Positions 196-41,240 of a DNA stretch of 41,745 bases are shown one piece after another. Position numbers and translations under genes: made by a program. The notes under the pieces were generated by a model. It did no database searches, had not been told where the DNA came from, and saw only the letters and a program-made list of their open reading frames with translations. Numbering within the stretch: the first letter of the stretch is position 1; every line of letters starts with the position of its first letter. Source of the DNA: Gemmatimonadota bacterium. Lineage in GTDB: Bacteria; Gemmatimonadota; Gemmatimonadetes; Gemmatimonadales; GWC2-71-9. The stretch covers positions 1-41,745 of the forward strand of contig JBDTOH010000001.1 in NCBI GenBank assembly GCA_039933355.1. Direction: 5' to 3'.

Positions 196-1608
196 ATGGA
201 TTCTTCGTTCGTCTCTCGCAACCAGGACCGGATGCTCAAGGAGCTGACCGAGTTCCTGTCGATTCCGAGCATCAGCGCGCTGCCCAATCATGGGCGCGAT
301 TGCGCTCGCGCCGCTGCCTGGCTGGTTGATCACTTGAAACGGCTTGGGTGCCCGGTAGCCGAGGTGCTCGAAGACCGGGACCATCCTGTCGTGTGGGCCG
401 AAAGCCCGCGCGTCGATGGCGCGCCCACGCTGCTGATTTACGGCCACTACGACGTGCAGCCGGTCGATCCCGTCAGCGAGTGGGTCTCGCCCCCGTTCGA
501 GCCGACCCTCCGCGACGGCAAGCTCTACGCCCGCGGCGCCGCCGACGACAAGGGCCAAGTCTACTGCCTGCTCAAGGCGTACGAATCGGTGTTAGGCGCG
601 GACGGACTGCCGCCGGTGAACGTCAACTTTATCATCGAGGGCGAGGAAGAGAGCGGCGGCAGAGTCATCGAGGAGTTGCTGACCCGCGAGCCGGACCGGA
701 CCCGCGCCGACGCCGTCCTCGTCTGCGACATGGCCTACTTCGCGGAGGGAATACCGGCCGTCTACACCGCGCTCCGCGGGCTCTGCTACGCCGAGATCCA
801 TGTCCGCACCGCGGACCGCGATCTCCACTCGGGAACCTACGGCGGTGTCGCGCCGAACGCCCTCGAAACGCTGGTCCGCATCTTGGCCGGCCTCAAATCG
901 CGCTCCGGCGAGATCGAGATCCCCAAGCTCTACAAGTCGGTCAAGAAGCCGTCGAAACCCGAGGCGAAGGCGTGGAAGAAGCTCCCGTTCGACCAGAAGA
1001 AGTTCTTAGCGGAAGAGCTCACCGCGCGCGGTATGACCGGTATCAAAGACTACTCCGTTTTCGAGCGGACATGGGCCTTGCCTACCTTCGAGATCCACGG
1101 AATTCGGGGCGGCTTCGCCGGCGAGGGGGCGAAGACCGTGATCCCGGCCCAGGCTATGGCCAAGGTCAGCCTGCGACTCGTCCCGGGCCTGTCCTTCGAG
1201 AAGGTCGCCCGGTGGCTCACCCGCGCGATTGAAAAGCTGACGCCGAAGTTCGCCGAGGTGGAGGTCAAGATCCTCCATGGCGGTGATCCCGTGGAGGTCG
1301 ACGTGGGCGCTCCGGCGTTCGGCGTTCTCGACGACGCGTTCGAGGCGGTCGCGGGACGGCGAGCCGTGACGGTTCGCGCCGGCGGTTCGATCCCGGTGAT
1401 CCCGCTGCTCGCGATCTCCGGAGCACCGGTGATCCTGACCGGCATCGGGCTCCCGGACGATGGGCTCCACTCGCCTAACGAGAAGCTGAACCTGACCCAG
1501 TTGTGGGAAGGTGTGGACGTCTTTGGAAGGTTTCTCGAGGGGCTGCGGGCGGTTCGGGCCGACGAGGAGAAAGGGGAGAAGGAGGAGAAGCAGAAGGAGG
1601 AGTCTTAG
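196..1608 (+). CDS. M20 family metallopeptidase (dipeptidase; ArgE/DapE/ACY1/CPG2 family)
   Basis: The longest ORF (25..1608) begins at a TTG inside a repeat element. The homologous part starts at ATG 196 (MDSSFVSRNQ...). M20 hallmarks HYDVQP and ARGAADDKGQ are present. The C-terminal tail is Glu/Lys-rich. Confidence 0.85.
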   Translation: MDSSFVSRNQDRMLKELTEFLSIPSISALPNHGRDCARAAAWLVDHLKRLGCPVAEVLEDRDHPVVWAESPRVDGAPTLLIYGHYDVQPVDPVSEWVSPPFEPTLRDGKLYARGAADDKGQVYCLLKAYESVLGADGLPPVNVNFIIEGEEESGGRVIEELLTREPDRTRADAVLVCDMAYFAEGIPAVYTALRGLCYAEIHVRTADRDLHSGTYGGVAPNALETLVRILAGLKSRSGEIEIPKLYKSVKKPSKPEAKAWKKLPFDQKKFLAEELTARGMTGIKDYSVFERTWALPTFEIHGIRGGFAGEGAKTVIPAQAMAKVSLRLVPGLSFEKVARWLTRAIEKLTPKFAEVEVKILHGGDPVEVDVGAPAFGVLDDAFEAVAGRRAVTVRAGGSIPVIPLLAISGAPVILTGIGLPDDGLHSPNEKLNLTQLWEGVDVFGRFLEGLRAVRADEEKGEKEEKQKEES

Positions 1609-2147
1609 CTGTCCGCTCCCGGATTGGGCTTCTTGTACCCGCCCGAATAGCGCGCGTGCAGCTCGTCGACGCCGATCACCGCGCGGACCGAGGCGATGAT
1701 CCCCGCTACAACGTCGTCGGCCCAGTAGTCGTCGGGACGATCCTGGGCCGGGAGCTGCTTCGACTTCGTTTCCAGAAACCGGATGGCCGTGGCGATCCAG
1801 TCGTTCTGGGCCGTCTCGACCAATGACCATGATGCTGTCGCCCGAAGCTCGAGCTCCGACAGCTCCTCCAGCAGCTGACCGATTTCCTCCGTCACTTGCT
1901 GAGACCGCAGCCGCTCGGCGACGAGGGTGAGCGTCGTGCTGCGCTCGGTCTCTTGCGGCTCCGGCAATGGCGGCAGGTAGTGACGTTGGTCGGCCACCAT
2001 TTCGGCGAGCCGAACGCACACCGCCCGAATGGAGGGGGTCAGCGCCGCAGGGGCCTCCCTCGCCCAGCTGGCGGCGGCGCGGAGGATACTCCGGACCGTC
2101 TCGTCAGCCATTTCTACCAGCTTGCTGTGGTCCAGGGCGTTCGCCAT
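1605..2147 (-). CDS. hypothetical protein (180 aa, helical, no family recognised)
   Basis: The ORF is 1605..2264. The plausible start is ATG 2147 (MANALDHSKLVEM...). A TATATAC box ends 11 nt upstream and there is no Shine-Dalgarno. The stop overlaps the convergent peptidase stop by 4 nt. Confidence 0.55.
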   Translation of the reverse strand: MANALDHSKLVEMADETVRSILRAAASWAREAPAALTPSIRAVCVRLAEMVADQRHYLPPLPEPQETERSTTLTLVAERLRSQQVTEEIGQLLEELSELELRATASWSLVETAQNDWIATAIRFLETKSKQLPAQDRPDDYWADDVVAGIIASVRAVIGVDELHARYSGGYKKPNPGADS

Positions 2148-2150
2148 AAG

Positions 2151-4239: not shown

Positions 4240-4983
4240 CTACATCATGAGGTCGCCGCCGTTGATGTCGAATGAGGCGCCCGTGATGTATCCAGCGGCC
4301 TCCGACGCGATGAAGCAGACGAGGTCCGCCACCTCTACCGGTTGTCCGAGCCGCGGCACGGGATAGGCCGCGGCGAGTCGCTGGAGCAGGTCCGGGCTCG
4401 CGTGCTCACGAGTGAGCTCCGTGTCGATCATGCCCGGGCAGACCGCGTTCACCGTGATCCCGTAGCTGCCCAGCTCCTTGGCCGACGCCCGCGTGAGTCC
4501 GACCAGACCGGTCTTCGATGCCGTGTAGTGGGCTCCCCCGAGCGTGCTGACCTGACGGCCGGCGGTGGAGGAGATGTTGATGACCCGGCCGAACTGCTGG
4601 CGCCGCATGGATGGAACGACGGCCTGCGTCAGCAGAAACGGCGCCGTCATGTTCACCTCGAGCACCCGCCTCCACTCGTCGGCCGAGATCTTCTCGAACC
4701 GGGTGCCTAACGCGAGCGCCGCGTTGTTGACGAGGATGTCGATCTTGCCCGCTTCCTCGAGCACCTTGTCGACCATGGCCCTGAGCGCCGCCTGGTCCTC
4801 GAGATCGGCGGGAGCCGCGATCGCGCCCGGGCCCAGGCTGGCGGCGAGCGCGTCGGCCCGCGCAGGATCCCGTACGTTCACGGCGACCCGCGCCCCCCGG
4901 GCCAGCAGCCGCTCCGCCACGGCTCGGCCGAGGCCTCGCGCCGCTCCCGTGACGAGAGCGACGCGGCCGGAGAAGTCGTCCAT
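4240..4983 (-). CDS. SDR family oxidoreductase (3-oxoacyl-ACP reductase FabG-like)
   Basis: 247 aa. It has the TGAARGLG cofactor motif, NNAA, and the catalytic YTASK (YxxxK). Confidence 0.85.
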   Translation of the reverse strand: MDDFSGRVALVTGAARGLGRAVAERLLARGARVAVNVRDPARADALAASLGPGAIAAPADLEDQAALRAMVDKVLEEAGKIDILVNNAALALGTRFEKISADEWRRVLEVNMTAPFLLTQAVVPSMRRQQFGRVINISSTAGRQVSTLGGAHYTASKTGLVGLTRASAKELGSYGITVNAVCPGMIDTELTREHASPDLLQRLAAAYPVPRLGQPVEVADLVCFIASEAAGYITGASFDINGGDLMM

Positions 4984-4986
4984 CGG

Positions 4987-7900
4987 TTAGTGCTCGCCCG
5001 CGGCGGGCTTGGGAGTCTCGGTGAGACCGTATGGCGCGTCGGTCTTCTTCTGGCGCGGCCACAGCTCGTCCATCGTGTTGCCGTCGTAGAGCCGACCGTT
5101 TTTCATCACCCAGGTGATGGTGTTGGTGTTCTGGATGTTGTCGAGCGGGTTCTTGTCCATGACGATCAAGTCCGCGAGCTTGCCCGGCTCGAGCGAGCCG
5201 AGATCGCCGTCCAGGCCTAACGATTGGGCGCCGGCCAGCGTGGCCATCCGGAGCACGTCGTGGTTCGGCATTCCGCCCGACGCCACCGACCGAAGCTCCC
5301 AGTGGTATCCGAGCCCTTGGAACTCGCCGTGGCTCCCGATGCCGATCTTGCCGCCCATCTTCACGATGTCCGCCGCGACCTTCGCGGTCTGGGGGAAGAT
5401 CCACTCGTCGTCCATGAACCAGCCGCCGGGACCGGGGCCGACGCCCTGGCCGCGGCGGCGAGTCTTGGAGGCCAGCTCTTCGTACGGCATGAACCGGCGG
5501 ATCTTGGGATCGTTATAGGGCTTGTCGTGGATGAAGTAGTAGTCTTCGCCCCACGGCCCGCCATATTGCACGATGAGAGTCGGCGTGTACTCGATGCCGG
5601 ACTTCGCGTACATCGTCACGACATCCTTGTAGAGCGGGACGGTCGGAGTGGCGTGCTCCTGACCCGGATAGCCGTCGACCAGCATCGTCAGGTCGTACTT
5701 GGTATCGATCGATCCTTCGGTCGTCGGCATGATGTTGTTTTCACGGGCCGCCATGATCACCCATTGGCGCACCTGACGATTTCCCTTGACGTACATCTTG
5801 ATGTACTTGGTGTCCCAGTACTGGCTGTACTTCTTCATGACCTTACGAGCATGATCGAGATCGCGGATCTGCTCCTGCCAATAGCCGACACCCGTGCTGG
5901 TGGAGTAGATCCTCGGCCCGATCATCTGGCCGGCGTCCACCGCATCGCCGTATGAGACGACGTCGCTGGCTCCGGTCTGGGGATCCCGGGTCGTGGTCAC
6001 GCCGTACGCCAGGTTCGCCAGATACATCCAGGGCTGCTGTTTGTGGAGGCCCCAGGTGGGCCACATGTGCGAGTGGGTATCGATAAAGCCCGGCACGATG
6101 GTCTTCCCCGACACGTCCATGACCTTGGCGCCACTCGGCGCCTCTCCCCGCGGCCCCACGCTCACGATTCGGTTGTTGCGGACCACAAGGTCGGCATTCT
6201 CGACCACCTCCGAGCCGCGCATGGTGATCACCCGCGCTCCTCGAAGCACGACGGTGCCTTGTGGAATGTCGAGCGGGGCCCGAATCACGATCTTGGTTTC
6301 GACCGGCTCGAACGTCCGCTTCGAGAGTGAATCGGTCCGCGCCTTGCCCGCTGCGGTGGTGTCCCCCTCGAGCGCCTTCTTGTCCGCCTCGATCTTCCGA
6401 TCGAATGCCCGAGCCGAGTCGAGGTCATACGTGAAGAACGCGCTGCCTAAGCTCCAATGGATCTTCTTGCCGTCGGAGCTCCAGGTGGGGAACTCACCGC
6501 CGATATCCGTGAGGCGGCGGGCAGGGACGGTTGCCGCCTTTGGATCCTGAATCGAAACCGTCGGCGCCTCGCCTCCCACCTGCGGCACGGTCACGACATA
6601 GACGTCGAACCCGCTTTGGATCAGCGCTTGGTCGCCGGTCGGTCCCATTACGGCGACGTCGGCCGGACCGGGCTTCTCCTGGTTGAGGAGCATCGGCGCC
6701 GTCACCTTGAGATAGCGTTTTTGATCGGTTCCATCCCACCGAACCGAGACGAGCCCGCTGTCGCCGGCCCAGAGATAGATCCGGTTCGGGTCCCGCGTGA
6801 AGTGCGGGTTACCGCGGCCGAAGGTCGGCGTGATCAGCGTGGTCGCCCCGCCATTCGCCGGAACCGAGATGAGATCGACGTTGGTGCCGGGCGCGCCGGG
6901 CCCGTCTTCGAGCCGGCGCGGCTCCGCGGGGCCACGGATCACCGCGAGGCGGGTGCCGTCGGGTGCCCATGCGGGCTGCGTGTACGTCGCCTTCTCCGTC
7001 ACGAGCGCGACCGGCGCGCCGGTGCCGTCCGCGCGCGTCTTGTAGACGGTGCCGCCCTCCTTTTGCCAGCTCACGTACCCGACCCATTGACCGTCGGGAG
7101 ACCAGGTCGGCTCGGCCTCGATCATATCGAGCTTGGTGAGCCGCCGGGGCGTCCCGTTAGGCAGGTCCATGAGATAGAGCCGGTCGAGCCCGGTGAACAC
7201 GAGCTGCTTCCCGTCGGGCGACGGAACGGCGTCTCGAATCTGGTGAATCGAGAACTGAGCGCTGTCGCGGATCGGATACTTGAACGCGACCTCGGGCCCC
7301 AGGTCCATCTTCGTCTGGACCCGGAACGGCACCGCGCTCGGCGCGCCGCCGTCGATCGGCACCCGCCAGATCTTGCCGCCGTACGTCGTCACCAGCTCCT
7401 TCGAGTCCGGCGTGAACGACATCCCCGGGTAGGCGTCGCGGCTCGGAATCGCTTCCTGATCGTCGCGCTGGACCGGATAGGCCAGCCACTTCTCGTCGCC
7501 CGACTTCATGTCGCGGAGGACGAGGCCGGTCTTGGTCTCGAACCGAGTGGCGTACACCATCCACTTACCATCGGGCGAGAGCGTCGGCCGGATCGCGGAG
7601 CCGAACCGCGACGTCCGAGTCTCGCGGAGCCCGGTCTCGCGATCGTACACCGCGATCTGGTACTGAGGGAAGATTGCGTTGTACTGCCACGCTCCCTGGC
7701 GCTGCGCGTACCAGATATAGCGGCCGTCCGGACCGAAAGCCGCGCCGGTTGTCATCCCGTTCTCGGGCGTCTTGATGAGCTGAATTCCGGAGCCACCGTC
7801 GATGTGGAACATCCAGAGCTTCGCCGGCTTGAACACGATGTCGCCCACGCTCGCGACGATGTATTTCCCGTCCGGCGTCCACTCGGGCGACTGGATGATC

Positions 7901-9170: not shown

Positions 9171-9610
9171 CGCGCGATTCGGCGCCCGAGCAGCGCGCAG
9201 CCTAACAGACAGATCACCGCCAGCCCGAGCAGCCCGCTTCGGCCGAGTGCCATGTCGACGGGTTTGGCGACCAACGAAAATACGACCGTCGCGAACCCGC
9301 ACACCATCGCGAGCATGCCCTGACGAAACGGGTTCTTGATCGGCGCGAGCACGATCCACGCGGCGATCCCCGCGGCGAGGATCGCGGCGCCCGTTCCTCC
9401 GAGCAGCACCAGCGCGGGCGCCGAGTTCATGTCGATAGTGGTGGCGGGTGGAGCACCGGCTTGGAGCGTGCGAACCACCCAAACCACCAGCGCGTTGAGC
9501 CCGGTTCCCAGGATCACCGCGAAGGGCAGGGCCAGGAACGCGAGCCCGACATAGTCTTGCTTCGGCGCATCGGCGCCGAACGGGTTCGGAGAAGGCGGGG
9601 GAGCGGTCAT
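9155..9610 (-). CDS. hypothetical integral membrane protein (about 4 TM helices)
   Basis: Starts at ATG 9610 (MTAPPPSPNPF...). Hydrophobic helices run throughout. It sits immediately upstream of lipB and overlaps it. Confidence 0.5.
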   Translation of the reverse strand: MTAPPPSPNPFGADAPKQDYVGLAFLALPFAVILGTGLNALVVWVVRTLQAGAPPATTIDMNSAPALVLLGGTGAAILAAGIAAWIVLAPIKNPFRQGMLAMVCGFATVVFSLVAKPVDMALGRSGLLGLAVICLLGCALLGRRIARWRPA

Positions 9611-12894: not shown

Positions 12895-12928
12895 TCGTTA
12901 GGCTCCTCGGCCGTTCGTGCCCGCGCCG

Positions 12929-14000: not shown

Positions 14001-14999
14001 ATAGACATCGCGGTGGAGCGCATCCAATTCCGGCTCGGGCGATTCGTCGGCGAACTTATACGCGTCCTCGACCTCCGCGAGCGCTTCCGCGTTGAGCTGC
14101 TCGTAACCCGGGTCGTCGAGGTATCCGCCGGCCCGCATAACGTCGGCGAGCACCTTGATCGGGTCGCGCCGCCGGTATTCTTCTACTTCGTCCTTGGTGC
14201 GGTAGGTGCCGTGGGCCGCGTCCGACATCGAGTGGCCGACGTATCGGTAGGTCCGCATCTCGAGCAGCGTCGGCTTCGATTCAGTCCGGGCTCGCTCGAC
14301 AGCCTTGTCCACGGCCGCGCGGACCGTGAGCACGTTCTGGCCATCTACCTGCTCGGCGGGCATGTCATAGGCCGAGCCGCGGACTGAGAGGCCGGTCACC
14401 GCGCTCGCGCGGGCGACCGCCGTGCCCATGCCGTAGCCGTTGTTCTCGCAGATGAAGACCGCCGGCAACTTCCACAGGCCGGCCATGTTGAGCGTCTCGT
14501 GGAACGCGCCGATGTTGACCGCGGCCTCGCCGAAGAAGCAGACCGAGACTTGGTCGCCCCCGCGGTACTTGATCGCGAACGCGGCCCCGGCCGCGAGCGG
14601 GATGTGGCTGCCGACGATTCCGTGCCCACCGAGAAAGCCTAACGACTTGTCGAAGATGTGCATCGAGCCGCCCTTGCCGTGCGAGCAGCCGGTTGCCTTG
14701 CCGAGGAGCTCCGCCATGACGGCCCGCGCCGCGATCCCGCGGGCCAGCGCATGGCCGTGCTCGCGATAGGCGGAGATGACGTAGTCGTCGGGACGAAGGG
14801 CGGCGAGCGCCCCGACCGCGACCGCTTCCTGGCCGATGTACAAATGACAGAACCCGCCGATTTTTCCGAGCGAGTACGCTTCGCCCGCCTTTTCCTCGAA
14901 CCGGCGGATCAGGAGCATCTGCCGGAGGTAGCGGCGGTGGAGCTCGGCCGTCGCGGCATCCACCTTGGTCGGCGGCTTGGGCGCCGCTGTTGTCGCCAT
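13953..14999 (-). CDS. pdhA: pyruvate dehydrogenase E1 alpha subunit
   Basis: Starts at ATG 14999 (MATTAAPKPP...), overlapping the lipA stop by 1 nt (TGATG). It has the alpha-proteobacterial/mitochondrial-type motif RRFEEKAGEAYSLGKIGGFCHLYIGQEA. The last ~15 codons (ATEVGNRKPETGGTS) are encoded by a heptamer repeat arm. Confidence 0.9.
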   Translation of the reverse strand: MATTAAPKPPTKVDAATAELHRRYLRQMLLIRRFEEKAGEAYSLGKIGGFCHLYIGQEAVAVGALAALRPDDYVISAYREHGHALARGIAARAVMAELLGKATGCSHGKGGSMHIFDKSLGFLGGHGIVGSHIPLAAGAAFAIKYRGGDQVSVCFFGEAAVNIGAFHETLNMAGLWKLPAVFICENNGYGMGTAVARASAVTGLSVRGSAYDMPAEQVDGQNVLTVRAAVDKAVERARTESKPTLLEMRTYRYVGHSMSDAAHGTYRTKDEVEEYRRRDPIKVLADVMRAGGYLDDPGYEQLNAEALAEVEDAYKFADESPEPELDALHRDVYATEVGNRKPETGGTS

Positions 15000-15961
15000 C
15001 AGGAGCTCCTCTTCGCCTTCGCCTGGTCCACTTGCTCCCAAGCGTGGTAGCTGGAGCGGGTCAGCGGGCTCGCCTCCACATGATCGAAGCCGAGCCGGAG
15101 CCCGATCGCCCGAAGCTCGGCGAACTCGCCGGGAGCGTAGAACCGGGCGACCGGAAGGTGGCTCGCCGTGGGACGGAGGTACTGCCCGATCGTGAGAATG
15201 TTGACATCGCTCCGCCGCAGGTCTTTCATCGCCTGGACCAGCTCGTCCCACTCCTCGCCCATTCCAACGATGATTCCCGACTTGGTCAGGGCATCGGGAT
15301 CGATCCGCCGCGCGTTCGCCAGGAGATCGAGCGCACGCTGGTAGCGTCCCCCCGGACGCGCCAGCCGATAGAGCCGGTCCACCGTCTCGAGATTGTGATT
15401 GAGGATGGCAGGCTTGGCGTCGAGCACCAGCCGGAGCGCAGTCTCGGAGCCCTTGAAGTCGGGAATCAGCACTTCGACCGAGCTGTCGGGGAGTCGTTTC
15501 CGAATCTCCGTGATGCAGCTCGCGAAGGCCTCCGCGCCGCCGTTAGGTAAGTCGTCCCGATCGACCGACGTGATCACAACGTGCTGGAGCCCCATCTCCG
15601 CGACCGCCTCGGCGAGCCGGACCGGCTCCACCGGGTCGAACGGCTTCGGGGTTCCATGCGCCACCGCGCAGTAGGCACAATTCCGGGTACACACATCGCC
15701 CAGAATCATGAACGTCGCCGCTTTGTGCTCCCAGCATTCGCCGATGTTGGGGCAACGGGCTTCCTCGCAGACCGTATGGAGGCCGAGGTCGCGCATCAGC
15801 GCTTTGATTCGAGCGTAGTTCGGCCCGCCGGGCGCCTTCACCTTGAGCCAGCTCGGCTTCCGCTCCAGCGGAACTGCGACTGAAACAGGGCGGTTGACCT
15901 CGGGAATGGCCGGGGCGCGGGTCAGTTGTACGAGAGGTAGCGCCACTCGGGATCTCCTCAT
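14999..15961 (-). CDS. lipA: lipoyl synthase (radical SAM)
   Basis: It has the CEEARCPNIGEC auxiliary cluster motif and the radical-SAM CTRNCAYC. The start is either ATG 15961 or TTG 15979, and neither has a good Shine-Dalgarno. Confidence 0.9.
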   Translation of the reverse strand: MRRSRVALPLVQLTRAPAIPEVNRPVSVAVPLERKPSWLKVKAPGGPNYARIKALMRDLGLHTVCEEARCPNIGECWEHKAATFMILGDVCTRNCAYCAVAHGTPKPFDPVEPVRLAEAVAEMGLQHVVITSVDRDDLPNGGAEAFASCITEIRKRLPDSSVEVLIPDFKGSETALRLVLDAKPAILNHNLETVDRLYRLARPGGRYQRALDLLANARRIDPDALTKSGIIVGMGEEWDELVQAMKDLRRSDVNILTIGQYLRPTASHLPVARFYAPGEFAELRAIGLRLGFDHVEASPLTRSSYHAWEQVDQAKAKRSS

Positions 15962-22002: not shown

Positions 22003-22006
22003 AGCG

Positions 22007-27040: not shown

Positions 27041-27652
27041 AATCCGCGCAAGCGGCGCGAGCAGCGTTGGTATCGCGCGGGCTCGGTCCATCAGGGACCG
27101 TGATGCGCCCGGTTGCCCGTTGGCCTCCAAGATCCGAGCCCGGTGATACATCATGGTCGGCGTTGGGCTGCCCCACCGGCCGCCTCGATCCGAGGCCCCT
27201 AACGCTTCGCCGATCTCCCCCCGGCGATACAACACCCAGCTCAGCAGATCGTCCGACTCGATCGTCCGCCGGCGGGCGACCTCGCGGTGCGCCAGCGCCA
27301 GCGCGGAGTCGAGCGATGCCCGGTCACCGCGCTCGGCGAGGTAGAGAGCGAGCGGGGTTGCCGAACAGCGCCTCGCGCCGGGGCGTGGCCGCGATGGCGA
27401 CGAACTTGGCCTCGGCCCGCTTCGCGTCGGCAACCGCGCCGACGACCCGCTCGACTTCGGCGAAACGGAGGTAGAGGTCGGGGTGCGCGTCCGAGAGGAT
27501 CTGGCGGTAGAGATTCTCGGCTCGCGGCTGCGGCCGCGCGCGAGCGCAATATTGGCAAGCTGCTCCACGGCGCCGCGGTATCCGGGCTGCACCGCGACCG
27601 CGTGCCGTAAGGTCGCTTCGGCATCGTCCGGTCCGCGGAGCGAATGATCCAT
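27032..27652 (-). pseudogene. frameshifted, N-terminally truncated paralog of the TPR protein at 24136..25338
   Basis: Protein-like sequence switches frame near 27536 (in a GCGCGCGG run) and back near 27356 (in a CCCC run). The reconstructed sequence ...LANIALAR/RPQPRAENLYRQILSDAHPDLYLRFAEVERVV...EALFGN/PLALYLAERGD...DDLLSWVLYRRGE aligns in order with the C-terminal ~190 aa of the 400-aa TPR protein. Confidence 0.5.
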
Positions 27653-27835
27653 GGTGATACGGAGCCGTGCCGCTTTGGACCCGACATCTCGCTACGTCGG
27701 CTGGATGAAATCGGATGTAGAAGGGATGTACCACGAAGACCCGCAAGCAGACCCGCCGCCCACCATACTACCAAAACCTAACGGTCCCGATCAAACGAGG
27801 AGCAAACTTGCCGCCTTGCCGCCTTCCCGCCGTTC

Positions 27836-30012: not shown

Positions 30013-30014
30013 TA

Positions 30015-30761: not shown

Positions 30762-30767
30762 TCTCCA

Positions 30768-32957: not shown

Positions 32958-33018
32958 GGCCCGACGTTAGGCGCTGCCGGCGCCCGCCGCTACCCGAGCG
33001 ACCATCAGGAGCCCCCGT

Positions 33019-34542
33019 TTGAAATCCCAAGACACCGCGTTCTTCGGTCACCCCGCGGGCCTGTCCACGCTCTTCTTCACCGAGATGTGGGAGCGGTTCA
33101 GCTACTACGGCATGCGGGCGATCCTGATCCTCTTCCTGACGGCCCCGCTGGCCGTGGGAGGCTTGGCGCTTCCGGTGCCGCAGGCGGGCGCGATCTACGG
33201 AACGTACGTGGCGTCGGTTTACCTGATGACCATGGCCGGCGGATGGATGGCCGACAAGATCCTCGGCTTGCGAAGAGCGGTCTTCGCTGGCGGTGTGCTG
33301 ATCATGCTCGGGCACGTCTCCCTGGCGTTCCGCGGCACGGGGACCTTCTACGGCGGGCTCCTCCTCGTCGTGCTGGGCACGGGGCTCCTCAAGGGAAACA
33401 TCAGCGCGATCGTCGGCCAGCTGTACGGGCCTAACGACGTTCGCCGGGACGCCGGGTTCTCCCTCTACTACATGGGCGTCAACTTGGGCGGGATGCTGGG
33501 CCCGATCTTCGTCGGGTGGTTCGCCCAGAAGGAATGGTTTCGGGCCAAGCTCGCCGAGTGGGGAATGGACCCCAACATGGCATGGCACTTCGGCTTCGCG
33601 GCGGCGGCGGTCGGGATGTTCTTCGGGTTGGTGCAGTACTGGTTCGGCCAGCGGCGCCTCCCTGCGCAGGCGCTCGAGCCGGCCGGTGCCAAGACCGACC
33701 TCGACCGCACCCGGGCCCGCCGCATGCTCGGGCTCGCGGCCGGGATTGTGCTCGCGATCACGGCGCTCGTCTACTGGATGAGCCGGTCCGGTATCATCAC
33801 CCTCACACCCACGCTCATCTCGGGTTCGGTCGATCTCCTCATCTTCGGCGGCGCCACCGCGTTTTTCGTGTGGCTCTTCAAGGCGAGCGCGTGGACCCCG
33901 GAGGAGCGGAAGCGTCTCGTCGTCGTCTTCGTCCTCTTCCTCGGCGCGACGGTCTTCTGGTCCGCCTTTGAACAGGCCGGCTCGACTCTCAATCTGTTCG
34001 CCCAGCGCAACACGAACACCACCATCGTCGGTTGGGCGTATCCGCCGAGCTGGCTCCAATCGGTCAACTCGTTCTTCATCGTGGTCTTCGCGCCGGTGGT
34101 CGGCGCGGTCTGGTTCCGTCTCGGCGCCCGGAATCCGTCGAGCCCGGCCAAATTCTCGTTAGGCCTGTTCCTGCTCGCCGGGGCCTTCAGCCTCATGGTG
34201 ATCGCGTCGGTGCTGGCGGGGAACGGCGGTCGGGTGAGCCCGATGTGGCTGATCGGCTGCTACTTCTTCCAGACGATCGGAGAGCTCTGTTTGAGCCCGG
34301 TGGGGCTGAGCGCGATGTCGAAGCTGGCGCCGGCCCGGGTTACCGGCCTGATGATGGGCGTCTGGTTCCTCGCCTCGGCGATCGGTAACAAGATTGCGGG
34401 GCGGGTCGGCGGGCTCTACGAATCGCTCTCGCTCCCGACGTTGTTCGGGATGAACGCGCTGTTCGTGCTCGGCTTCGCCGTGCTGATGGCCCTCCTCGTC
34501 AAGCCGATCAAACGAATGCTCGGCGAGGGTGTGAAGGCGTAG
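33019..34542 (+). CDS. proton-dependent oligopeptide transporter (POT/PTR2 family, DtpT-like)
   Basis: It has the signature FFGHPAGLSTLFFTEMWERFSYYGMRAIL. TTG start at 33019, 7 nt after AGGAG. Confidence 0.85.
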   Translation: MKSQDTAFFGHPAGLSTLFFTEMWERFSYYGMRAILILFLTAPLAVGGLALPVPQAGAIYGTYVASVYLMTMAGGWMADKILGLRRAVFAGGVLIMLGHVSLAFRGTGTFYGGLLLVVLGTGLLKGNISAIVGQLYGPNDVRRDAGFSLYYMGVNLGGMLGPIFVGWFAQKEWFRAKLAEWGMDPNMAWHFGFAAAAVGMFFGLVQYWFGQRRLPAQALEPAGAKTDLDRTRARRMLGLAAGIVLAITALVYWMSRSGIITLTPTLISGSVDLLIFGGATAFFVWLFKASAWTPEERKRLVVVFVLFLGATVFWSAFEQAGSTLNLFAQRNTNTTIVGWAYPPSWLQSVNSFFIVVFAPVVGAVWFRLGARNPSSPAKFSLGLFLLAGAFSLMVIASVLAGNGGRVSPMWLIGCYFFQTIGELCLSPVGLSAMSKLAPARVTGLMMGVWFLASAIGNKIAGRVGGLYESLSLPTLFGMNALFVLGFAVLMALLVKPIKRMLGEGVKA

Positions 34543-35084
34543 GACCGAGCTGGTTTCTCCGCTCTTCGGATCACCGCGCACGGGAGCCGCTTGCCCGCGT
34601 TTCCGGCCGGATCGGTATACTCGTCGTCGGTGCGCTCGTGGATCACCAGAGCCGAGGTGCCGTCGGCGCCGCGGAGTGAGCGCGGGCCCGGAAGCAGCGT
34701 CGCGCCGGTGACGAAGAAGACCGTATCGACGCGGCCCCGAGTGTCCACCGCGAGGTTGCCGAGGTCGCCGAGGTGCGGTCCCATCGGGTTGTGATGCCCG
34801 TGGTGCTTGAGAAACGGGTTGAGGTGCGGGCCGGCGGACTCGAAGCCAGGCGACTCGCAGCGGCCCAGACTATGGATATGCATTCCGATCAGCCCCGGCG
34901 GCAGCGTGCCGGCCACAATCCGGAACCGGATCGTGCCCCCGCTCTCCGTCAGCTCGAGGGATCCGATCGAATCGTCGGTGCCATTCTTGATCGCGGCGCG
35001 AATCGGCCCCTGCGCGTGGACCGGGCGCAGCGTTCCGGCCGGCAGGGTGAGCACCAGCAGCGAAACGAGCGCCTGAATCTTCAT
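34416..35084 (-). CDS. sodC: Cu/Zn superoxide dismutase, periplasmic, with an atypical ~50-aa C-terminal tail
   Basis: Starts at ATG 35084 with a signal peptide. Motifs GMHIHSLGRCE, HLGDLGNL and DPAGNAGKRLPCAVI are present. The reading frame continues 127 nt into the convergent POT gene before the first stop. Confidence 0.85.
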   Translation of the reverse strand: MKIQALVSLLVLTLPAGTLRPVHAQGPIRAAIKNGTDDSIGSLELTESGGTIRFRIVAGTLPPGLIGMHIHSLGRCESPGFESAGPHLNPFLKHHGHHNPMGPHLGDLGNLAVDTRGRVDTVFFVTGATLLPGPRSLRGADGTSALVIHERTDDEYTDPAGNAGKRLPCAVIRRAEKPARSYAFTPSPSIRLIGLTRRAISTAKPSTNSAFIPNNVGSESDS

Positions 35085-35129
35085 CCGGCCCCCCGGGTTA
35101 CAGCGGCACCTCCACGCTACATTGGGTTC

Positions 35130-38100
35130 ATGCGAAAGACCATCCCTGAAGTTCTCGGCGCCGTGCTGCTCCTCGCCGCGTGCTCCCGGCCGAGCGTCAC
35201 GGGGCGGTGGCACGACGAAGCGGGGTATCGCTGGCGCGAGCTGGCGGCTGCGCGCACCGACCGGGCCGGCTTCACTTCGCTCGCCGCGTCGGCCACCGGG
35301 CTCGCTTTCCAGAACGTGGTATCCGAAGCGAAGGCGGCCGCCAACCGGCACCTGATGCAGGGCGCCGGCGTCGCGATCGCGGATGTCGACGGCGATGGGC
35401 GCCCCGATGTCTACCTCACCCGCGCCGACGGGCCGAACGCGCTCTTCCTCAACCAGGGCGACTGGAAGTTCACGGAGGTCGCGGCCGAGCGGGGCGTCGC
35501 GTTAGGCGACCGGGCCTCGACCGGCGCGGTCTTCGCGGACGTGGACGGCGACGGAGACCAGGACCTGATCGTCGGCGCGATGAACGGGCGGAACGCGCTC
35601 TTTCTCAACGACGGCAAAGGCCATTTCACCGACGCGACGGCCGGGTCCGGCTTTGTGCCGGAGGCTCGCGGCACCACCTCGCTCGCGCTCGCGGACGTGG
35701 ACGGGGACGGGGACCTCGACCTCTATGTGGTGAACTACAAGGGCCGCACGATGTTGGACTCGCTCTCGCCGCAGGAGCGGGCCTTCGACCAGCTCGTCAA
35801 GAAGATCGGTGATCGGTACGAGATCATCCCGAGCCGCCAGGCCGACTATCGAGTCGTCCTCCGGCCCGACATCCGGGGCGTGAGCGTCGTGCAGCGCGCC
35901 GATCCGGACTGGTTCTATCTCAACGACGGTCACGGACACTTCACCCTCGAGCCGATCGCCCATAACCCGCGCTTCCTGGACGAAGACGGCAAGCCCCTCG
36001 AGGCCGAGCCCGAGGATTTCGGCCTCGCGGCCCGGTTCTTCGACGCCAACAACGACGGCGCCCCGGACCTCTACGTCGCCAACGATTTCGAGGACCCCGA
36101 TCAGTTCTGGCTCAACGACGGCTTCGGACGGTTCCGGCTGATCCGGCGGGAAGCGCTCCGGTCCACCAGCAACTCGACCATGGCGGTGGACGTCTCCGAC
36201 TTGAACGGCGACGGCTTCTTCGATCTGTTCACGGTGGACATGATGGGCCGCGACTCGCGCCGCCGGAAGATGGAGACGCCGACCCATACGCCGCTCCCGA
36301 AGAAGGCGGGCGATTATAGCGACCGGACCCAATGGCAGCGCAACGCGCTCCAGGTCAGCCGGGGCGACGGCACCTACGCGAACGTCGCGAACCTGGCGGG
36401 CGTCGAGGCGTCCGGATGGTCGTGGTCGGCGCTGTTCCTCGACGTCGATCTCGACGGCTACGAGGACCTGCTGATTGGAGCGGGTCACACCTGGGATCTC
36501 ATGGACTCCGACACCCAGGAACGCCTCAAGAGCACGCTGTTGGAAGTGGACTGGCGTCAGGAGCGGAGGCTCTATCCCAAGCTGCTCCTCGACAACGTGG
36601 CCTTCCGGAATCGCGGTGACCTCACCTTTGAGGACGCGACGACCGAGTGGGCCTTCTCCCCGGAGCCCGGCATCTCCCACGGCATGGCGCTCGGCGACCT
36701 CGACGGCGACGGCGACCTCGACGTCGTAGTGAACCGGCTCAACGCCCCGGCGCTCCTCCTCAGGAACGAGGCCGGCGCCGGCCGGATCGCCGTCCGGCTC
36801 GTCGGCCGAGCGCCTAACGTCCAAGCGGTGGGGAGCCGGATCGAGGTCCGCGGCGGCGCGGTCCCGGTCGAGATCAAGGAAGTATCGCTCGGCGGGCTCT
36901 ACCTCTCGAGCTCGGAGACCCTCTACAGCTTCGCGACCGGCCGGGCCGACTCCGTGACCGTGGCCGTCCGGTGGCGGAGCGGTGGGACGACCACGCTCCG
37001 GCTCAAGGCAGATCGCGAATACGAGATCAAGGACGCGGGCACCTCCAGGGCGCCGGGAGCGAAGCCCGAGGCGGCAGCTTCGCCCCTGTTCGAAGATGTC
37101 TCCAGCCTGCTCGACCATCGCGACGGTGAGACGGCGTTCGACGACTTCGCTCGCCAGCCGCTGCTCCCGTGGCAACTGAGCCAGCTCGGGCCGGGAGTGG
37201 GCTGGATCGACCTCGACGGCGACGGCGACGACGATCTGGTGATCGGCGCGGCCGGCGGAGAGCCGTTAGGCGTGTTCCGGAACGACGGCGGCCGGTTCAC
37301 CCGCGTGCCGGTGACGCTCGATCACGGCCGGTTCGACTTGACCGGCGTCGTCGGTCTGCCCGAGGGCCGAGGAGCGCGGGTTCTGGTGGGTCAGTCGAGC
37401 TATCGAGCCGAATCGCCGGCTGAAGCGGTCGGGGTGGCGGGCGTGCTCGCCGCCGACCTGAGTGGCGGGCGCGACCACGGAACCCGCCCCGCCGTGGGCG
37501 GCGATACCACGAGCGTTGGACCGCTCGCGCTCGCCGACTACGACGGGGACGGCCGGCTCGATCTGTTCGTCGGGGGCAGGGTCGCGCCGGGCGCCTATCC
37601 GCTGCCGGCGAACAGCCGGCTGTACCGGAACACCGCCGGTGGCTTCGTGCTTGACTCCGCGAACACGGCGGTGCTGCGAGGCGTCGGGCTCGTCTCCAGC
37701 GCCGTGTTCACGGATCTCGACGGCGACGGCGACGTCGATCTCTGTCTCGCGGTCGAGTGGGGACCGGTCAAGGTGCTGATCAACGATCACGGCCGGTTCA
37801 CCGATCAGACGGCGGCATGGGGACTCGCTGGGCTGACGGGGCGGTGGAATGGCCTTGCCGCGGGCGACTTCAACGGGGACGGCGCGATGGATCTCGTCGC
37901 CACCTCCTGGGGCCGCAACACCGGCATCAGCGCCGACTCGGCGGCGCCCCTCTATATGTATTACGGCAACTACGGCGGTGGGGGCACCGTCCAGATGCTC
38001 CTCGCCCAGGCCGATCCCCGCCTCGGCGGCCGGATCGCGCCGTTAGGCACTCTCTCCCGCCTCGCCAGCGTGCTCGCCGACGTGCGGGTCCGAACTCCGA

Positions 38101-38813
38101 CCTTCGCCGTCTACGCGGATGCCCCGATCGAACAGGTCCTCGGCCCGGCGATCCGCCAGGGCGGACGAGCCGAGGCGAGGACCCTCGACCACGTGGTGCT
38201 CATCAATCGGGCCGGCCGCTTCGAGCCGCATCCGCTCCCGCTGATGGCCCAGATCGCACCGGCCTTCGGCGTTGTGGTCGCCGACTTCGACGGCGACGGC
38301 CGCGAAGATCTGTTCCTGGCCCAGAACTTCTCGCAAACCGACATCGCCACGCCGCGGTTCGACGCCGGCGTCGGCGTCGAGCTCCTCGGCGACGGCGCCG
38401 GCGCCTTCAAAGCTGCGAGTGTCAAGGAGTCCGGTATCGAGATGTTCGGCGACCAGCGCGGCGCCGCGGTCGCCGACTTCGACGGCGACGGCCGCCCCGA
38501 CCTCGTGGTCGGTCAGAACGGCGCCGAAACCAAGCTTTACAAGAACCGGGCCGGCAAGCCCGGGCTCCACGTTAGGCTCCGCGGGCCGGAAGAAAACCCG
38601 AGCGGCATCGGCGCCCAGGTCCGGCTCCGGTACGGCACGGCATGGGGTCCGGCGCGGGAGATCCACGCCGGGGCGGGCTACTGGTCGGAGGACGGCTCGT
38701 CGCCGCTGTTAGGCGCGGCGGAAGCGGTGACGGGGGTGTGGGTGCGGTGGCCGGGCGGGCGAGTCGCGGAAGTCGCGGTGCCGGCGGAAGCCCATGAAGT
38801 GGAGGTGCGTTAG
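35130..38813 (+). CDS. FG-GAP/VCBS-repeat lipoprotein with two ASPIC/UnbV-like domains (CRTAC1 family, duplicated module)
   Basis: Starts at ATG 35130 (MRKTIPEVLGAVLLLAAC, a lipobox). It has many D(V/L)DGDGxxDL repeats. UnbV/ASPIC-like segments occur mid-protein (RIAVRLVGRAPNVQAVGSRIEV) and at the C-terminus (LHVRLRGPEENPSGIGAQVRL). Confidence 0.85.
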   Translation: MRKTIPEVLGAVLLLAACSRPSVTGRWHDEAGYRWRELAAARTDRAGFTSLAASATGLAFQNVVSEAKAAANRHLMQGAGVAIADVDGDGRPDVYLTRADGPNALFLNQGDWKFTEVAAERGVALGDRASTGAVFADVDGDGDQDLIVGAMNGRNALFLNDGKGHFTDATAGSGFVPEARGTTSLALADVDGDGDLDLYVVNYKGRTMLDSLSPQERAFDQLVKKIGDRYEIIPSRQADYRVVLRPDIRGVSVVQRADPDWFYLNDGHGHFTLEPIAHNPRFLDEDGKPLEAEPEDFGLAARFFDANNDGAPDLYVANDFEDPDQFWLNDGFGRFRLIRREALRSTSNSTMAVDVSDLNGDGFFDLFTVDMMGRDSRRRKMETPTHTPLPKKAGDYSDRTQWQRNALQVSRGDGTYANVANLAGVEASGWSWSALFLDVDLDGYEDLLIGAGHTWDLMDSDTQERLKSTLLEVDWRQERRLYPKLLLDNVAFRNRGDLTFEDATTEWAFSPEPGISHGMALGDLDGDGDLDVVVNRLNAPALLLRNEAGAGRIAVRLVGRAPNVQAVGSRIEVRGGAVPVEIKEVSLGGLYLSSSETLYSFATGRADSVTVAVRWRSGGTTTLRLKADREYEIKDAGTSRAPGAKPEAAASPLFEDVSSLLDHRDGETAFDDFARQPLLPWQLSQLGPGVGWIDLDGDGDDDLVIGAAGGEPLGVFRNDGGRFTRVPVTLDHGRFDLTGVVGLPEGRGARVLVGQSSYRAESPAEAVGVAGVLAADLSGGRDHGTRPAVGGDTTSVGPLALADYDGDGRLDLFVGGRVAPGAYPLPANSRLYRNTAGGFVLDSANTAVLRGVGLVSSAVFTDLDGDGDVDLCLAVEWGPVKVLINDHGRFTDQTAAWGLAGLTGRWNGLAAGDFNGDGAMDLVATSWGRNTGISADSAAPLYMYYGNYGGGGTVQMLLAQADPRLGGRIAPLGTLSRLASVLADVRVRTPTFAVYADAPIEQVLGPAIRQGGRAEARTLDHVVLINRAGRFEPHPLPLMAQIAPAFGVVVADFDGDGREDLFLAQNFSQTDIATPRFDAGVGVELLGDGAGAFKAASVKESGIEMFGDQRGAAVADFDGDGRPDLVVGQNGAETKLYKNRAGKPGLHVRLRGPEENPSGIGAQVRLRYGTAWGPAREIHAGAGYWSEDGSSPLLGAAEAVTGVWVRWPGGRVAEVAVPAEAHEVEVR

Positions 38814-38842
38814 GAGCAGGCCACGGTTGAACCGCCGCCCAG

Positions 38843-39217: not shown

Positions 39218-39293
39218 GGACCTGCATCCGCTCCGTTAAATCCGCTTCCACATTGGGCGGCGCGCCCCGGGCGAGGGAACCGTCGTTCCGTCC

Positions 39294-41240
39294 TCAGCCT
39301 GCACTGGTTTCAGCAACTACGTTCGGATTGTGTGTTCTGGCTGAGTATCCGGTCCACTCAGGGCAGTCGTCGACGAACTGCCGCAACCAGATCTCGAGGC
39401 TCACCAAGTTGAAAATCTCCACCGAGTGGTCAGCTTGGCCGGCCAGCTGGGAGTTCAGCATGGTCTCGACGAGTGACTGGTCGATCAGTTGCCGCGCTCC
39501 GGTTTGCCCGTTCAGGAGAAGGTCACGGACGGCCTTGCCAAGCCCGCCCTGAAGCCAAGCCGCGAACGGGGTCGGAAAACCCTTCTTCTCACGCCGCCAT
39601 AAGACATCCGGGGGTAGTCGACCATCCATCGCGCGCCGCAGCACCGCCTTGGTGTATCCTTTGGAGAATCGCTGGTCCGCCGACAGGGCCAGGCAGTACT
39701 CGACCAAGGGCCGATCGAGAAATGGGACTCGGGATTCAACCGAGAATGCCATGCTGATCCGATCCTCGAACAGGAGCAGCGATGGTAGGAGCCCTCGGCT
39801 CAGTGTGTTCCACTGGGCTCGCGTAAGCCCATCTTCGATACCTGGCGGTTCGACGATCGGATTGTGCTCGTCGAGAACCGCGGCCTCGATCGCCCCCACC
39901 GAGAGCAGCCCCCGTTCAGTCGCTGGCCGAAACAATCGCTTGAGCCGCCCTAGATCGGACTGGGACTCACGCAGGCCGACCCGATGGTTGAAACCAAGGC
40001 TCTCCCGGAGCACGCTTCTCCCGAAATTGCCCGGCGCCACCGAACGGTACGCCCTGAACTCCCGGAGACCTCGTATGAGTTTGCCCCTGCGCAGCAAGTC
40101 GGCGAGGAATGCCTTGACGAGAAACGGATAGCCGCCGAGCATCTCGTCGGCGCCTTGCCCATCGAGGAGGACGGTCACGTGGGCGGCAGCCAGTTCAATG
40201 ACCTTCCATTGCGAGTACACCCCAATGCCCTGATCCGGCTCGCCGCTGGCCGCGATCATCCGTTGGAGGGTTACCAGATAATCGACGGCCCCGTCCGGAG
40301 AAAACTCGGTCTGTTGCGTCCCGAATCGCTCCGCAACCTGACGGAAATAGCGGGACTCGGACGATGACGTACCCGGGTAGTCGACCGAAAAGGTCCGCAG
40401 CGGATCGCCGTTAGGCGATAGGGCGACCAGCGAGCTCGAGTCGAGCCCCCCGCTGAGACAGATCCCGACCGGCACGTCGCTTCGAAAATGGAGCCGAATG
40501 GAATCGGTGAGGAGGGTTCGAAAGCCCTCCTCGGGCGGCGTGCCCCGATGGTCGCGCCGGACCGCCTCCAAGTCGGGCATCCAATATCGCGTGAGCGTCA
40601 GCCGACCGTTCTGCAGGGTGAGGTTGGTGGCGGGTGGCAGGGCGACGATTCCGTCGAATGACGTCTCATCGTAGCGCTCGAACCGGCGATCTGAAAGTTG
40701 TCGAATCAGGAAGGCCCAATTCGGCGCATGGCTGTCGGCGGTCAAAAGCGCCCGAATGTCCGATGCGAAATGGAAGGCCTCGCCCGAGTGCCGGTAAAAG
40801 AACGGCTTGATCCCAAACGGGTCTCTGCTGCAGAACAACTCGCGGTTGCGGCTGTCCCAAATGGCAAATGCCCACATGCCGCGCAACCGGTGGACGCACT
40901 CCGCGCCCCAAGTTTGGTAGGCGGCGAGAAGGACCTCGGTATCAGTGGCGGTCTGGAACGAGTATCCGAGCCGATGGAGCTCATGACGGAGCTCGATGTA
41001 GTTGTAGATCTCGCCGTTATACGTGAGCGTCAACGACTCGTCCGCGGTCTTCATCGGCTGGGCGCCTGCATCGGAAAGATCGATGATTGCCAGCCGCCGA
41101 TGACCTAACCCGACGGAGCCGTCGACCCAGATCCCGGCACCGTCGGGACCGCGATGGGCTTGCGAGTCTGTCATCCACTGGAGGTGGTGCTGGTCGACCG
41201 GCCGGCCACGAAGCTCGAGAATTCCTGCGATACCGCACAT
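39294..41240 (-). CDS. asnB: asparagine synthase (glutamine-hydrolysing), AsnB family
   Basis: It has the N-terminal nucleophile MCGIAG, a class-II glutamine amidotransferase domain, and the PP-loop LSGGLDSS. Confidence 0.85.
   Translation of the reverse strand: MCGIAGILELRGRPVDQHHLQWMTDSQAHRGPDGAGIWVDGSVGLGHRRLAIIDLSDAGAQPMKTADESLTLTYNGEIYNYIELRHELHRLGYSFQTATDTEVLLAAYQTWGAECVHRLRGMWAFAIWDSRNRELFCSRDPFGIKPFFYRHSGEAFHFASDIRALLTADSHAPNWAFLIRQLSDRRFERYDETSFDGIVALPPATNLTLQNGRLTLTRYWMPDLEAVRRDHRGTPPEEGFRTLLTDSIRLHFRSDVPVGICLSGGLDSSSLVALSPNGDPLRTFSVDYPGTSSSESRYFRQVAERFGTQQTEFSPDGAVDYLVTLQRMIAASGEPDQGIGVYSQWKVIELAAAHVTVLLDGQGADEMLGGYPFLVKAFLADLLRRGKLIRGLREFRAYRSVAPGNFGRSVLRESLGFNHRVGLRESQSDLGRLKRLFRPATERGLLSVGAIEAAVLDEHNPIVEPPGIEDGLTRAQWNTLSRGLLPSLLLFEDRISMAFSVESRVPFLDRPLVEYCLALSADQRFSKGYTKAVLRRAMDGRLPPDVLWRREKKGFPTPFAAWLQGGLGKAVRDLLLNGQTGARQLIDQSLVETMLNSQLAGQADHSVEIFNLVSLEIWLRQFVDDCPEWTGYSARTHNPNVVAETSAG

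Follow-up and report, generated by a model that had tools for sequence, protein, structure and literature searches.

The DNA stretch analyzed here, referred to as the window, represents the whole 41,745-bp contig JBDTOH010000001.1 of a Gemmatimonadota metagenome-assembled genome (MAG) deposited at NCBI (GCA_039933355.1) and features a G+C content of 66.4%. It encodes ordinary chromosomal and house-keeping proteins, such as an M20 peptidase, an SDF symporter, an SDR protein and a PD40/amidohydrolase protein. Furthermore, a 2-oxoacid dehydrogenase operon with lipoyl synthase, an ECF sigma/anti-sigma pair, glycosyltransferases, a POT transporter and an FG-GAP/ASPIC protein are encoded. Genes were predicted by means of a simple caller based on G+C content at third codon positions (GC3) and were hand-corrected in places. 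Dispersed over these genes is the octamer CGTTAGGC with its core GTTAGG, which represents a lineage-specific, orientation-independent and hyper-abundant word of double-stranded DNA in an uncultured clade of the Gemmatimonadales.

Exact matching on both strands yielded 23 copies of the heptamer GTTAGGC, 12 on the plus and 11 on the minus strand. In 18 cases a C precedes the heptamer, giving CGTTAGGC at a density of 0.43 per kb, and the core GTTAGG is present in 30 copies (16 plus, 14 minus). The coordinates of all 23 heptamers in the preliminary description, including the 18 with a preceding C, proved to be exact, and its 11 one-mismatch variants are all present, each within 1 nt of where it had been placed. 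Among the over-represented 6- to 9-mers of the window, the word and its sub-words rank highest. Base composition (order 0) predicts 4.8 heptamers and 1.6 octamers, confirming the values of about 5 and 1.6 estimated earlier, and an order-2 (trinucleotide) Markov model predicts 1.2 and 0.44 copies, respectively. When synonymous codons were shuffled within each gene, keeping the protein and the codon usage of the gene, 4.2±1.1 copies were obtained, including three intergenic ones that the procedure does not touch; in 500 shuffles, the observed 23 was never reached. In other Gemmatimonadota, only one GTTAGGC copy was found in 267 kb (18 related loci). The true background thus lies far below the composition estimate, so that the over-representation noted earlier holds, whereas its size has to be raised from about 5-fold to about 100-fold when gauged against relatives.

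All copies and the core variants are compiled in Table 1. Fifteen of the 23 heptamers are read as G-TTA-GGC, five as CCT-AAC in antisense orientation and one as GTT-AGG, while two are intergenic, which agrees with the earlier count. Moreover, two core variants supply the stop codons of genes. The longest stretch devoid of the heptamer, spanning 8.5 kb at 24462-32964 (P of about 0.1 for such a gap), carries genes for DUF4331, DAO and DUF3108 proteins and two glycosyltransferases with lower GC3, and core variants occur there only at 27198 and 27777.

Table 1. Copies of the word and of core variants in the window; codons are separated by hyphens and lower-case letters mark deviating bases.
Sequence	Position	Strand	Reading	Context
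GTTAGGC, T before	591..597	+	sense GTG-TTA-GGC	M20 peptidase gene (1-1608 +)
CGTTAGGC	1473..1480	-	antisense TCG-CCT-AAC-GAG (Pro-Asn)	M20 peptidase gene
CGTTAGGC	4705..4712	-	sense GCG-TTA-GGC	SDR gene (4240-4983 -)
CGTTAGGC	5215..5222	-	sense TCG-TTA-GGC	PD40/amidohydrolase gene (4987-8304 -)
CGTTAGGC	7155..7162	+	antisense CTG-CCT-AAC-GGG	PD40/amidohydrolase gene
GTTAGGC, T before	9200..9206	-	sense CTG-TTA-GGC	open reading frame (ORF) 9155-9712 (-)
CGTTAGGC	12896..12903	+	intergenic	opposite strand, between GGAGG and ATG (12894) of E2 acyltransferase gene
CGTTAGGC	14637..14644	-	sense TCG-TTA-GGC	E1-alpha dehydrogenase gene
GTTAGGC, G before	18212..18218	+	sense AGG-TTA-GGC	beta-lactamase-family gene (16923-18470 +)
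CGTTAGGC	19638..19645	-	sense GCG-TTA-GGC	MFS transporter gene
GTTAGGC, T before	20771..20777	-	in-frame TTG-TTA-GGC	long redoxin ORF (19964-21892 -), upstream of Pfam domain
CGTTAGGC	22742..22749	-	sense GCG-TTA-GGC	anti-sigma RskA gene (22007-22798 -)
CGTTAGGC	24454..24461	-	sense GCG-TTA-GGC	TPR gene (24136-25338 -)
CGTTAGGC	32965..32972	+	intergenic	between ORF 32130-32957 and POT transporter gene; without terminator-like hairpin
CGTTAGGC	33429..33436	-	antisense GGG-CCT-AAC-GAC	POT transporter gene (33019-34542 +)
CGTTAGGC	34157..34164	+	sense TCG-TTA-GGC	POT transporter gene
CGTTAGGC	35500..35507	+	sense GCG-TTA-GGC	FG-GAP/ASPIC gene (34773-38813 +)
CGTTAGGC	36812..36819	-	antisense GCG-CCT-AAC-GTC	FG-GAP gene
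CGTTAGGC	37264..37271	+	sense CCG-TTA-GGC	FG-GAP gene
CGTTAGGC	38041..38048	+	sense CCG-TTA-GGC	FG-GAP gene
CGTTAGGC	38570..38577	+	sense CAC-GTT-AGG-CTC (Val-Arg), sole copy in this frame	FG-GAP gene
GTTAGGC, T before	38708..38714	+	sense CTG-TTA-GGC	FG-GAP gene
CGTTAGGC	40409..40416	+	antisense TCG-CCT-AAC-GGC	ORF 39294-41240 (-)
core variant CGTTAGGt	15541..15547	+	antisense CCT-AAC	lipoyl synthase gene
core variant CGGGTTAGGg	21021..21029	+		between called genes; matches L011 dialect
core variant CGTTAGGg	22005..22011	+		complement is TAA stop (22009-22007) of RskA gene
core variant CGTTAGGg	27198..27204	-	intergenic	
core variant CGTTAGGt	27777..27783	-	intergenic	
core variant CGTTAGGa	38808..38814	+		holds TAG stop (38811-38813) of FG-GAP gene
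core variant CGGGTTAGGt, dialect-like	41104..41112	-	sense GGG-TTA-GGT	ORF 39294-41240 (-)

Codon statistics show the word from another side. The curated gene list contains 25 in-frame TTA codons, 17 of which are followed by GGC, one by GGG and one by GGT, close to the earlier count of about 24, 17 and two. Outside the TTAGG context, TTA accounts for 6 of 12,232 codons in the window and for 29 of 76,565 codons in relatives, in line with the statement that TTA is otherwise nearly unused. Since TTA without the word is about as rare here as in relatives, the TTA excess represents a by-product of the word.

Occupancy was determined by relating, for each frame, the peptide contexts able to encode the octamer silently to those actually doing so, in a clade pool of 118 kb and in the relative L087. 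In the clade pool, the frame xCG-TTA-GGC was filled in 16 of 88 cases, antisense G-CCT-AAC-G in 11 of 23, C-GTT-AGG-C in 1 of 57 and antisense xGC-CTA-ACG in 0 of 40. The corresponding values for L087 were 11/23, 8/8, 5/15 and 7/12, meaning that all four stop-free frames are filled to 33–100%, with 16 sense and 15 antisense copies. In background genomes, 1 of 524 opportunities was filled over all frames. The antisense Pro-Asn frame is hence used more intensively than the Leu-Gly frame, which tops the raw counts because this dipeptide is common. It had been proposed that a DNA or RNA word rather than the protein is acted upon. The first part of this proposal stands, and the antisense occupancy as well as the balance in L087 narrow it to double-stranded DNA: the target is neither a codon pair nor a peptide nor RNA. 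Likewise, the claim that the frames used are those avoiding stop codons is correct in part, since four frames avoid them, of which the window uses essentially two and L087 all four. The restriction is thus one of degree: net pressure is weaker in the window, and its almost exclusive use of two frames follows from this and not from a mechanistic rule.

Codon alignments of the FG-GAP protein from five genomes and of the PD40/amidohydrolase protein from eight genomes revealed how sites arise. Silent two-step recoding from CTG/CTC-GGC to TTA-GGC was observed, for instance at site 35500, where orthologues carry CTG/CTC-GGC and the change is synonymous, and at site 36812 orthologues carry CCG/CCC-AAC. 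Other sites involve amino acid changes. At site 37264, orthologues encode Leu-Ala and the amino acid was altered to make the word (Leu-Gly), and at site 38041 they encode L-I, I-T, L-A or I-A. Further changes creating the word are Pro-Thr/Asp/Ala to Pro-Asn in L087 and Glu to Leu in L217, whereas an upstream Val to Ala change in L005 adds the flanking CG. Parallel gains occurred at the same column in non-sister genomes, and site 38570 shares its alignment column with a CGG-GTT-AGG copy in L011. Regarding conservation, TTA-GGC at site 38708 is common to the window and L005, and sites 5215 and 7155 are common to the window and L087; at the latter site, the other orthologues encode P-G, P-A or A-S. 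Six of the eight orthologues retain TTA-GG at site 5215; the word-poor L214 shows decay to TTG there, and L216 reads CTC. Most sites are lineage-specific and not conserved between genomes at about 60–65% identity. Of the 21 sites in L087 that are one mismatch away from the word, 10 deviate at codon position 2, compared with 11 of 123 in the background, implying that convertible sites have been converted. Taken together, silent, non-synonymous, parallel and conserved sites require a directional force that favors the whole octamer in any stop-free frame, on either strand, between genes and across stop codons.

Distribution of the word was followed in related genomes, for each of which 20–40 kb were read, and the skew and density figures refer to such stretches. 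A search with the POT gene provided 80 loci from other species, the nearest of which (L001, L002, L005, L006, L015) carry the same word. Orthologues of the PD40/amidohydrolase protein at 70–81% amino acid identity added seven genome samples, which differ in their flanking genes. Over these seven and the window, eight genomes in all, the density of CGTTAGGC ranges from 0.04 to 1.63 per kb. L087 (GCA_044224185.1) shows the highest value (1.63 per kb; 38 copies in 23.3 kb and 50 copies of GTTAGG), followed by the window and L086 (GCA_046327745.1; 0.43 each), L217 (0.34), L215 (0.21), L091 (0.13) and, at 0.04 per kb each, L214 and L216. In a tree based on protein identities, the word-poor genome L214 branches among genomes that bear the word. 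Density drops with rising G+C content, from 0.34–1.63 per kb at 63–64% G+C to 0.04 per kb at 68–72%; with eight genomes and phylogeny uncontrolled, this trend is only a hint. A more distant Gemmatimonadales MAG, L011, uses the dialect CGGGTTAGG with the same core, of which 11 copies were found versus 0.11 expected, and the dialect form also occurs twice in the window (Table 1). The pressure is therefore lineage-specific both in strength and in dialect.

Of about 85 scanned loci (at least 12 kb each), only those of the GTTAGG clade hold a dispersed hyper-abundant heptamer of this kind. The heptamer CTACTTC of an Acidobacteria MAG (L077), 12-fold over-represented with 13 sites, is always read in sense as x-TAC-TTC (Tyr-Phe) and thus reflects a protein or codon effect, whereas the GTTAGGC word is strand-symmetric. 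The genomes L087 to L090 are identical and hence carry no information on strain polymorphism at word sites, and a metagenome scan with the beta-lactamase-family protein returned distant relatives only. Occasionally, copies are arranged in tandem, overlap, as in CGTTAGGCGTTAGGC, or lie 12 nt apart (L087 14660-14685 and 22593-22607; L095 2156-2170; L127 6605-6628). In L127, the pair is a tandem duplication of 12 bp located in a tape-measure gene.

The word was also encountered in viral sequences. An IMG/VR scan that required two copies no more than 30 bp apart gave matches due mostly to chance or to tandem repeats, but also several high-GC contigs with dispersed copies. PHROG searches proved the latter to be true phages, with a tape-measure and a minor tail protein in L127, a terminase and a DNA polymerase in L120, and a terminase, a head maturation protease, a major head protein and a minor tail protein in L095/L218. 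L218, a larger piece (21.4 kb) of the L095 phage, harbors 12 copies, six of which are located inside structural genes in 10 kb that had not been selected for the word, and L127 and L120 are likewise enriched. The terminase of the word-rich phage retrieved no close relatives, only sequences of at most 40% identity, which served as negative controls: 32 other high-GC phage loci found in this way contain three copies in 322 kb. The phage set was partly ascertained via the word itself, which the unselected half of L218 and the terminase controls offset only partly. Some phages mirror the host word at host-like density, and the pressure accordingly acts on phage genomes, too. One contig retrieved by the scan, L192 (IMG/VR 3300031672_000057), is viral and high in G+C; at 6283-6500 it carries heptamers of the GGTTAGG/GGTTAGC type in a telomere-like tandem arrangement, and it was picked up only because this repeat contains the core GTTAGG.

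The sites show no strand skew: GTTAGG counts per strand are 23 plus and 27 minus in L087 and 11 plus and 8 minus in L086, and the other loci likewise lack a consistent skew. Based on 185 pooled sites, information is confined to the 8 bp of the word (about 14 bits), with weak preferences at positions -2 (G/T) and +7 (G/A) and neither an AT tract nor an extended motif around it. Spacing, given as coefficient of variation, is not distinguishable from random in the window (0.97, P 0.64) and marginally regular in L087 (0.76, P 0.03–0.07). Regarding the two analogies drawn in the preliminary description, the one to uptake signals fits at the sequence level, and the one to Chi or FtsK-orienting polar sequences (KOPS) fails. 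Chi and KOPS or architecture-imparting sequences (AIMS), recognized by RecBCD/AddAB and FtsK, respectively, resemble the word as frequent G-containing octamers occurring chromosome-wide, but are strongly skewed per replichore, whereas single contigs carry 12 plus and 11 minus heptamers (window) or nearly balanced cores (L087).

Based on these findings, the Gemmatimonadales probably own a previously unknown DNA self-recognition system, either a bias in uptake and transformation or a word-writing repair drive, with CGTTAGGC as tag and CGGGTTAGG as dialect. This system would be mirrored in phages and would be the densest reported so far, with about 1.6 copies per kb and up to 100% of silent opportunities filled. 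As its cause, a molecular drive of the uptake or transformation type is tentatively favored, although at somewhat less than an even chance. The transformation machinery would preferentially bind, import or recombine DNA fragments carrying the word, and alleles gaining a copy would be over-transmitted among conspecifics. Copies could then build up to saturation in chromosomes and co-evolving phages, while lineages may drift into dialects. The near-saturation in L087, with thousands of copies implied per genome, would argue for a per-site drive over selection on each copy.

Comparison with the DNA uptake sequences (DUS) of Neisseriaceae and the uptake signal sequences (USS) of Pasteurellaceae revealed several common features. 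The word is short and non-palindromic, occurs here at about 0.4–1.6 copies per kb in both orientations, and is found within and between genes. As described for these systems, its accommodation in coding frames is paid for with rare codons and amino acid changes at variable positions (PMC2817400), and related lineages use dialects, here CGGGTTAGG in L011 versus CGTTAGGC. In temperate phages of Pasteurellaceae, USS have built up to the density of the host (PMC6776037), comparable to the accumulation seen in L218, L127 and L120. At the sequence level, the word agrees with uptake sequences in abundance, lack of strand skew, dialects and occurrence in phages. The differences concern the phylum, the unrelated sequence, the length of 8 bp and the lack of flanking AT tracts or inverted pairs at terminators. 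Moreover, USS saturate at about 750 per Mb (PMC6776037), and both the peak of 1.63 per kb and the frame saturation observed here are higher. In the known systems, a ComP-type minor pilin acts as receptor for DUS, and a minor pilin has been proposed for USS. Soil Gemmatimonadetes populations were shown to recombine, and competence genes were reported to be common in soil genomes (PMC7305173), which represents only circumstantial support for uptake.

Several observations weigh against an uptake-driven origin. Neither a competence gene nor a receptor was found among the window and flank genes read. The word is shorter than DUS (10–12 bp) or USS (9 bp plus flanks), and even spacing is marginal in L087 and absent in the window. 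Inverted word pairs are missing in the window, as are terminator-like hairpins at the intergenic copies, unlike in the case of DUS, and one of the word-rich phages encodes its own DNA polymerase. Furthermore, a drive by repair or gene conversion, or direct selection, would leave the same footprint in the sequence.

The first of these alternatives, a drive by repair or gene conversion inside the cell, follows the model of Elhai for the cyanobacterial octamer HIP1 (GCGATCGC; PMC4390886); it appears rather unlikely but ranks second. Near-cognate mismatches would be resolved towards CGTTAGGC, e.g., by an orphan methyltransferase together with a mismatch-specific (Vsr-like) nuclease, and any replicating DNA, including that of phages, would be rewritten. 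Saturated convertible sites with residual one-mismatch sites at constrained codon positions, host-like density in phage structural genes, and density differences among close relatives with decay to TTG in L214, as if an enzyme had been gained or lost, are in accordance with this model. HIP1 itself is over-represented 15- to 300-fold (PMC5861425) and has been linked to transformation (bioRxiv 10.1101/2024.09.10.611283; 10.64898/2026.06.24.733823). It shares with the word hyper-abundance, about one copy per gene at the high end, tens- to hundreds-fold over-representation irrespective of codon usage, some orthologue-conserved sites, and lineage-variable abundance with alternative words in some lineages. 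However, HIP1 is a palindrome with methyltransferase sites (GATC, CGATCG), whereas CGTTAGGC is asymmetric: it differs from its complement GCCTAACG, contains no internal palindrome and lacks a known methyltransferase core, and thus does not belong to the HIP-type palindromes. In addition, pushing both G/C and A/T positions exceeds the T:G to C:G activity of Vsr, and neither a methyltransferase nor a Vsr gene turned up in the DNA read, although methyltransferases were not specifically examined. Repair drive, selection and transformation are all debated as the function of HIP1 (PMC4390886, PMC5861425, bioRxiv 10.64898/2026.06.24.733823), and a conservation analysis argued against its continual replenishment by biased repair (PMC5861425).

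Less probable still, and on the whole improbable, is a directly selected cis site bound by a host protein. It could serve as a nuclease-attenuating 'self' signal (an unskewed analogue of Chi), a nucleoid-organizing site or a defence mark, with phages mimicking it. Conservation of some sites across 70–80% amino acid identity and the presence of the word in phages agree with this possibility, and selection has been inferred for HIP1 (PMC5861425). On the other hand, each of the thousands of copies per genome (extrapolated from 0.4–1.6 per kb) would confer a tiny benefit, and yet 8 of 8 opportunities are occupied in one frame. The lack of strand skew, unlike for Chi and KOPS, and the poor conservation of most sites at about 60–65% identity also speak against it.

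A single hypermutable position turning GTTGGGC into GTTAGGC, e.g., by deamination of a methylated C (GCCCAAC to GCCTAAC, i.e., TTG to TTA and CCC to CCT), with the word as mutational sink, is very improbable and largely refuted. The window indeed uses only the two frames in which this change is silent, and G-CCC-AAC, with 3 copies versus about 10 expected, is rarer than in relatives. But L087 fills all four frames, including those in which the change is non-synonymous, and sites arise by several substitutions and amino acid changes. Moreover, G-TTG-GGC is not depleted (3 versus about 2.2), and, if anything, non-synonymous frames show an enrichment of GTTGGGC.

A translational signal, in which the rare pair TTA-GGC would cause pausing or regulation via tRNA-Leu(UAA), can be dismissed even more readily: although GGC follows 17 of the 25 TTA codons, the reverse complement is richer per opportunity, copies are also antisense, intergenic or stop-spanning, and the genes concerned are ordinary house-keeping genes, whereas bldA-type TTA codons are sense only and confined to a regulon. 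Integron core sites, equally far-fetched, are refuted for practical purposes: GTTAGGC literally matches the consensus GTTRRRY/RYYYAAC of attI and the attC R-box, and the sole relevant literature match for the string was an integron paper, but there is neither an imperfect palindrome of the attC type, which spans about 60–140 bp, nor a cassette array nor an integrase, inverse-core/core pairs at attC spacing are missing (the only pairs within 200 bp are direct), sites reside in house-keeping genes and half of the dialect copies of L011 have G instead of Y as last base. The agreement with the consensus is most likely a coincidence. Nanopore consensus sequences are known to contain errors at methylated motifs, and a sequencing or assembly artefact of this type is just as implausible here, since the word also occurs in MAGs with contig names of short-read style (k141; L005, L006), and a 12–17 kb stretch of L087 with 19–29 copies is 100% identical in the NCBI MAG and three independent Logan assemblies.

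Full-text literature searches returned no prior description of the word, or of uptake sequences in Gemmatimonadetes. Genome-wide self words as such are already known; notable here are the phylum, the asymmetry combined with HIP1-like density, the dialect and the density gradient. Very few bacterial groups are known to carry hyper-abundant words of this kind, and whether uptake drive, repair drive or selection gives rise to them is still argued. If confirmed, the system would be the first outside Neisseriaceae, Pasteurellaceae and cyanobacteria, and would add an independent case from a major, globally abundant and barely cultured soil phylum. The gradient from about 0 to 1.6 copies per kb among close relatives, together with the dialect, allows comparative tests against competence, pilin, methyltransferase and repair genes. 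In metagenomes, the word represents a simple marker linking phages and mobile DNA to these hosts, and including it in transforming DNA is suggested as a route to genetic tools. Caution is advised for analyses of codon usage and rare codons, since the whole TTA excess is an artefact of the DNA word and carries no translational signal.

Further features of the window touch the word only marginally or not at all. A PIN-domain (VapC-like toxin) gene at 16047-16547 (-) is located between the lipoyl synthase and beta-lactamase-family genes. The adjacent same-strand ORFs 25380-25916 and 25971-26705 (-) match one Pfam family, DUF4331, one covering the C-terminal part of the profile (positions 250–420) and the other the N-terminal part (1–96). 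They represent either a split gene or a two-gene arrangement, and the same split was seen in tblastn matches of L003, L005 and L006. ARAGORN called a 100-nt tRNA-Ile(GAT) at 6469-6568 (+), inside and antisense to the PD40/amidohydrolase ORF, which is almost certainly a false positive. Finally, intergenic regions harbor inverted pairs of short tandem heptamer arrays, e.g., (TCGGAAA)x4, a spacer of about 22 nt and (CCGATTT)x4. In the window, such pairs are located at 2824-2860/2937-2975, 9966-9994/10036-10054 and 13917-13943/13966-13996, with further array sites at 85-143, 11491-11524 and 23628-23668. Arrays were also found in L011 (760-860, 5069-5142, 8605-8728, 11516-11621) and L012 (9816-9850, 13061-13201), and the heptamer differs by site and genome: L011 uses (GCTATTG)n, whereas (CAGGGAA)n is found in L012. 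The arrays appear to form a class of long intergenic elements that occurs throughout the family, folds into hairpins and is unrelated to the GTTAGGC word.

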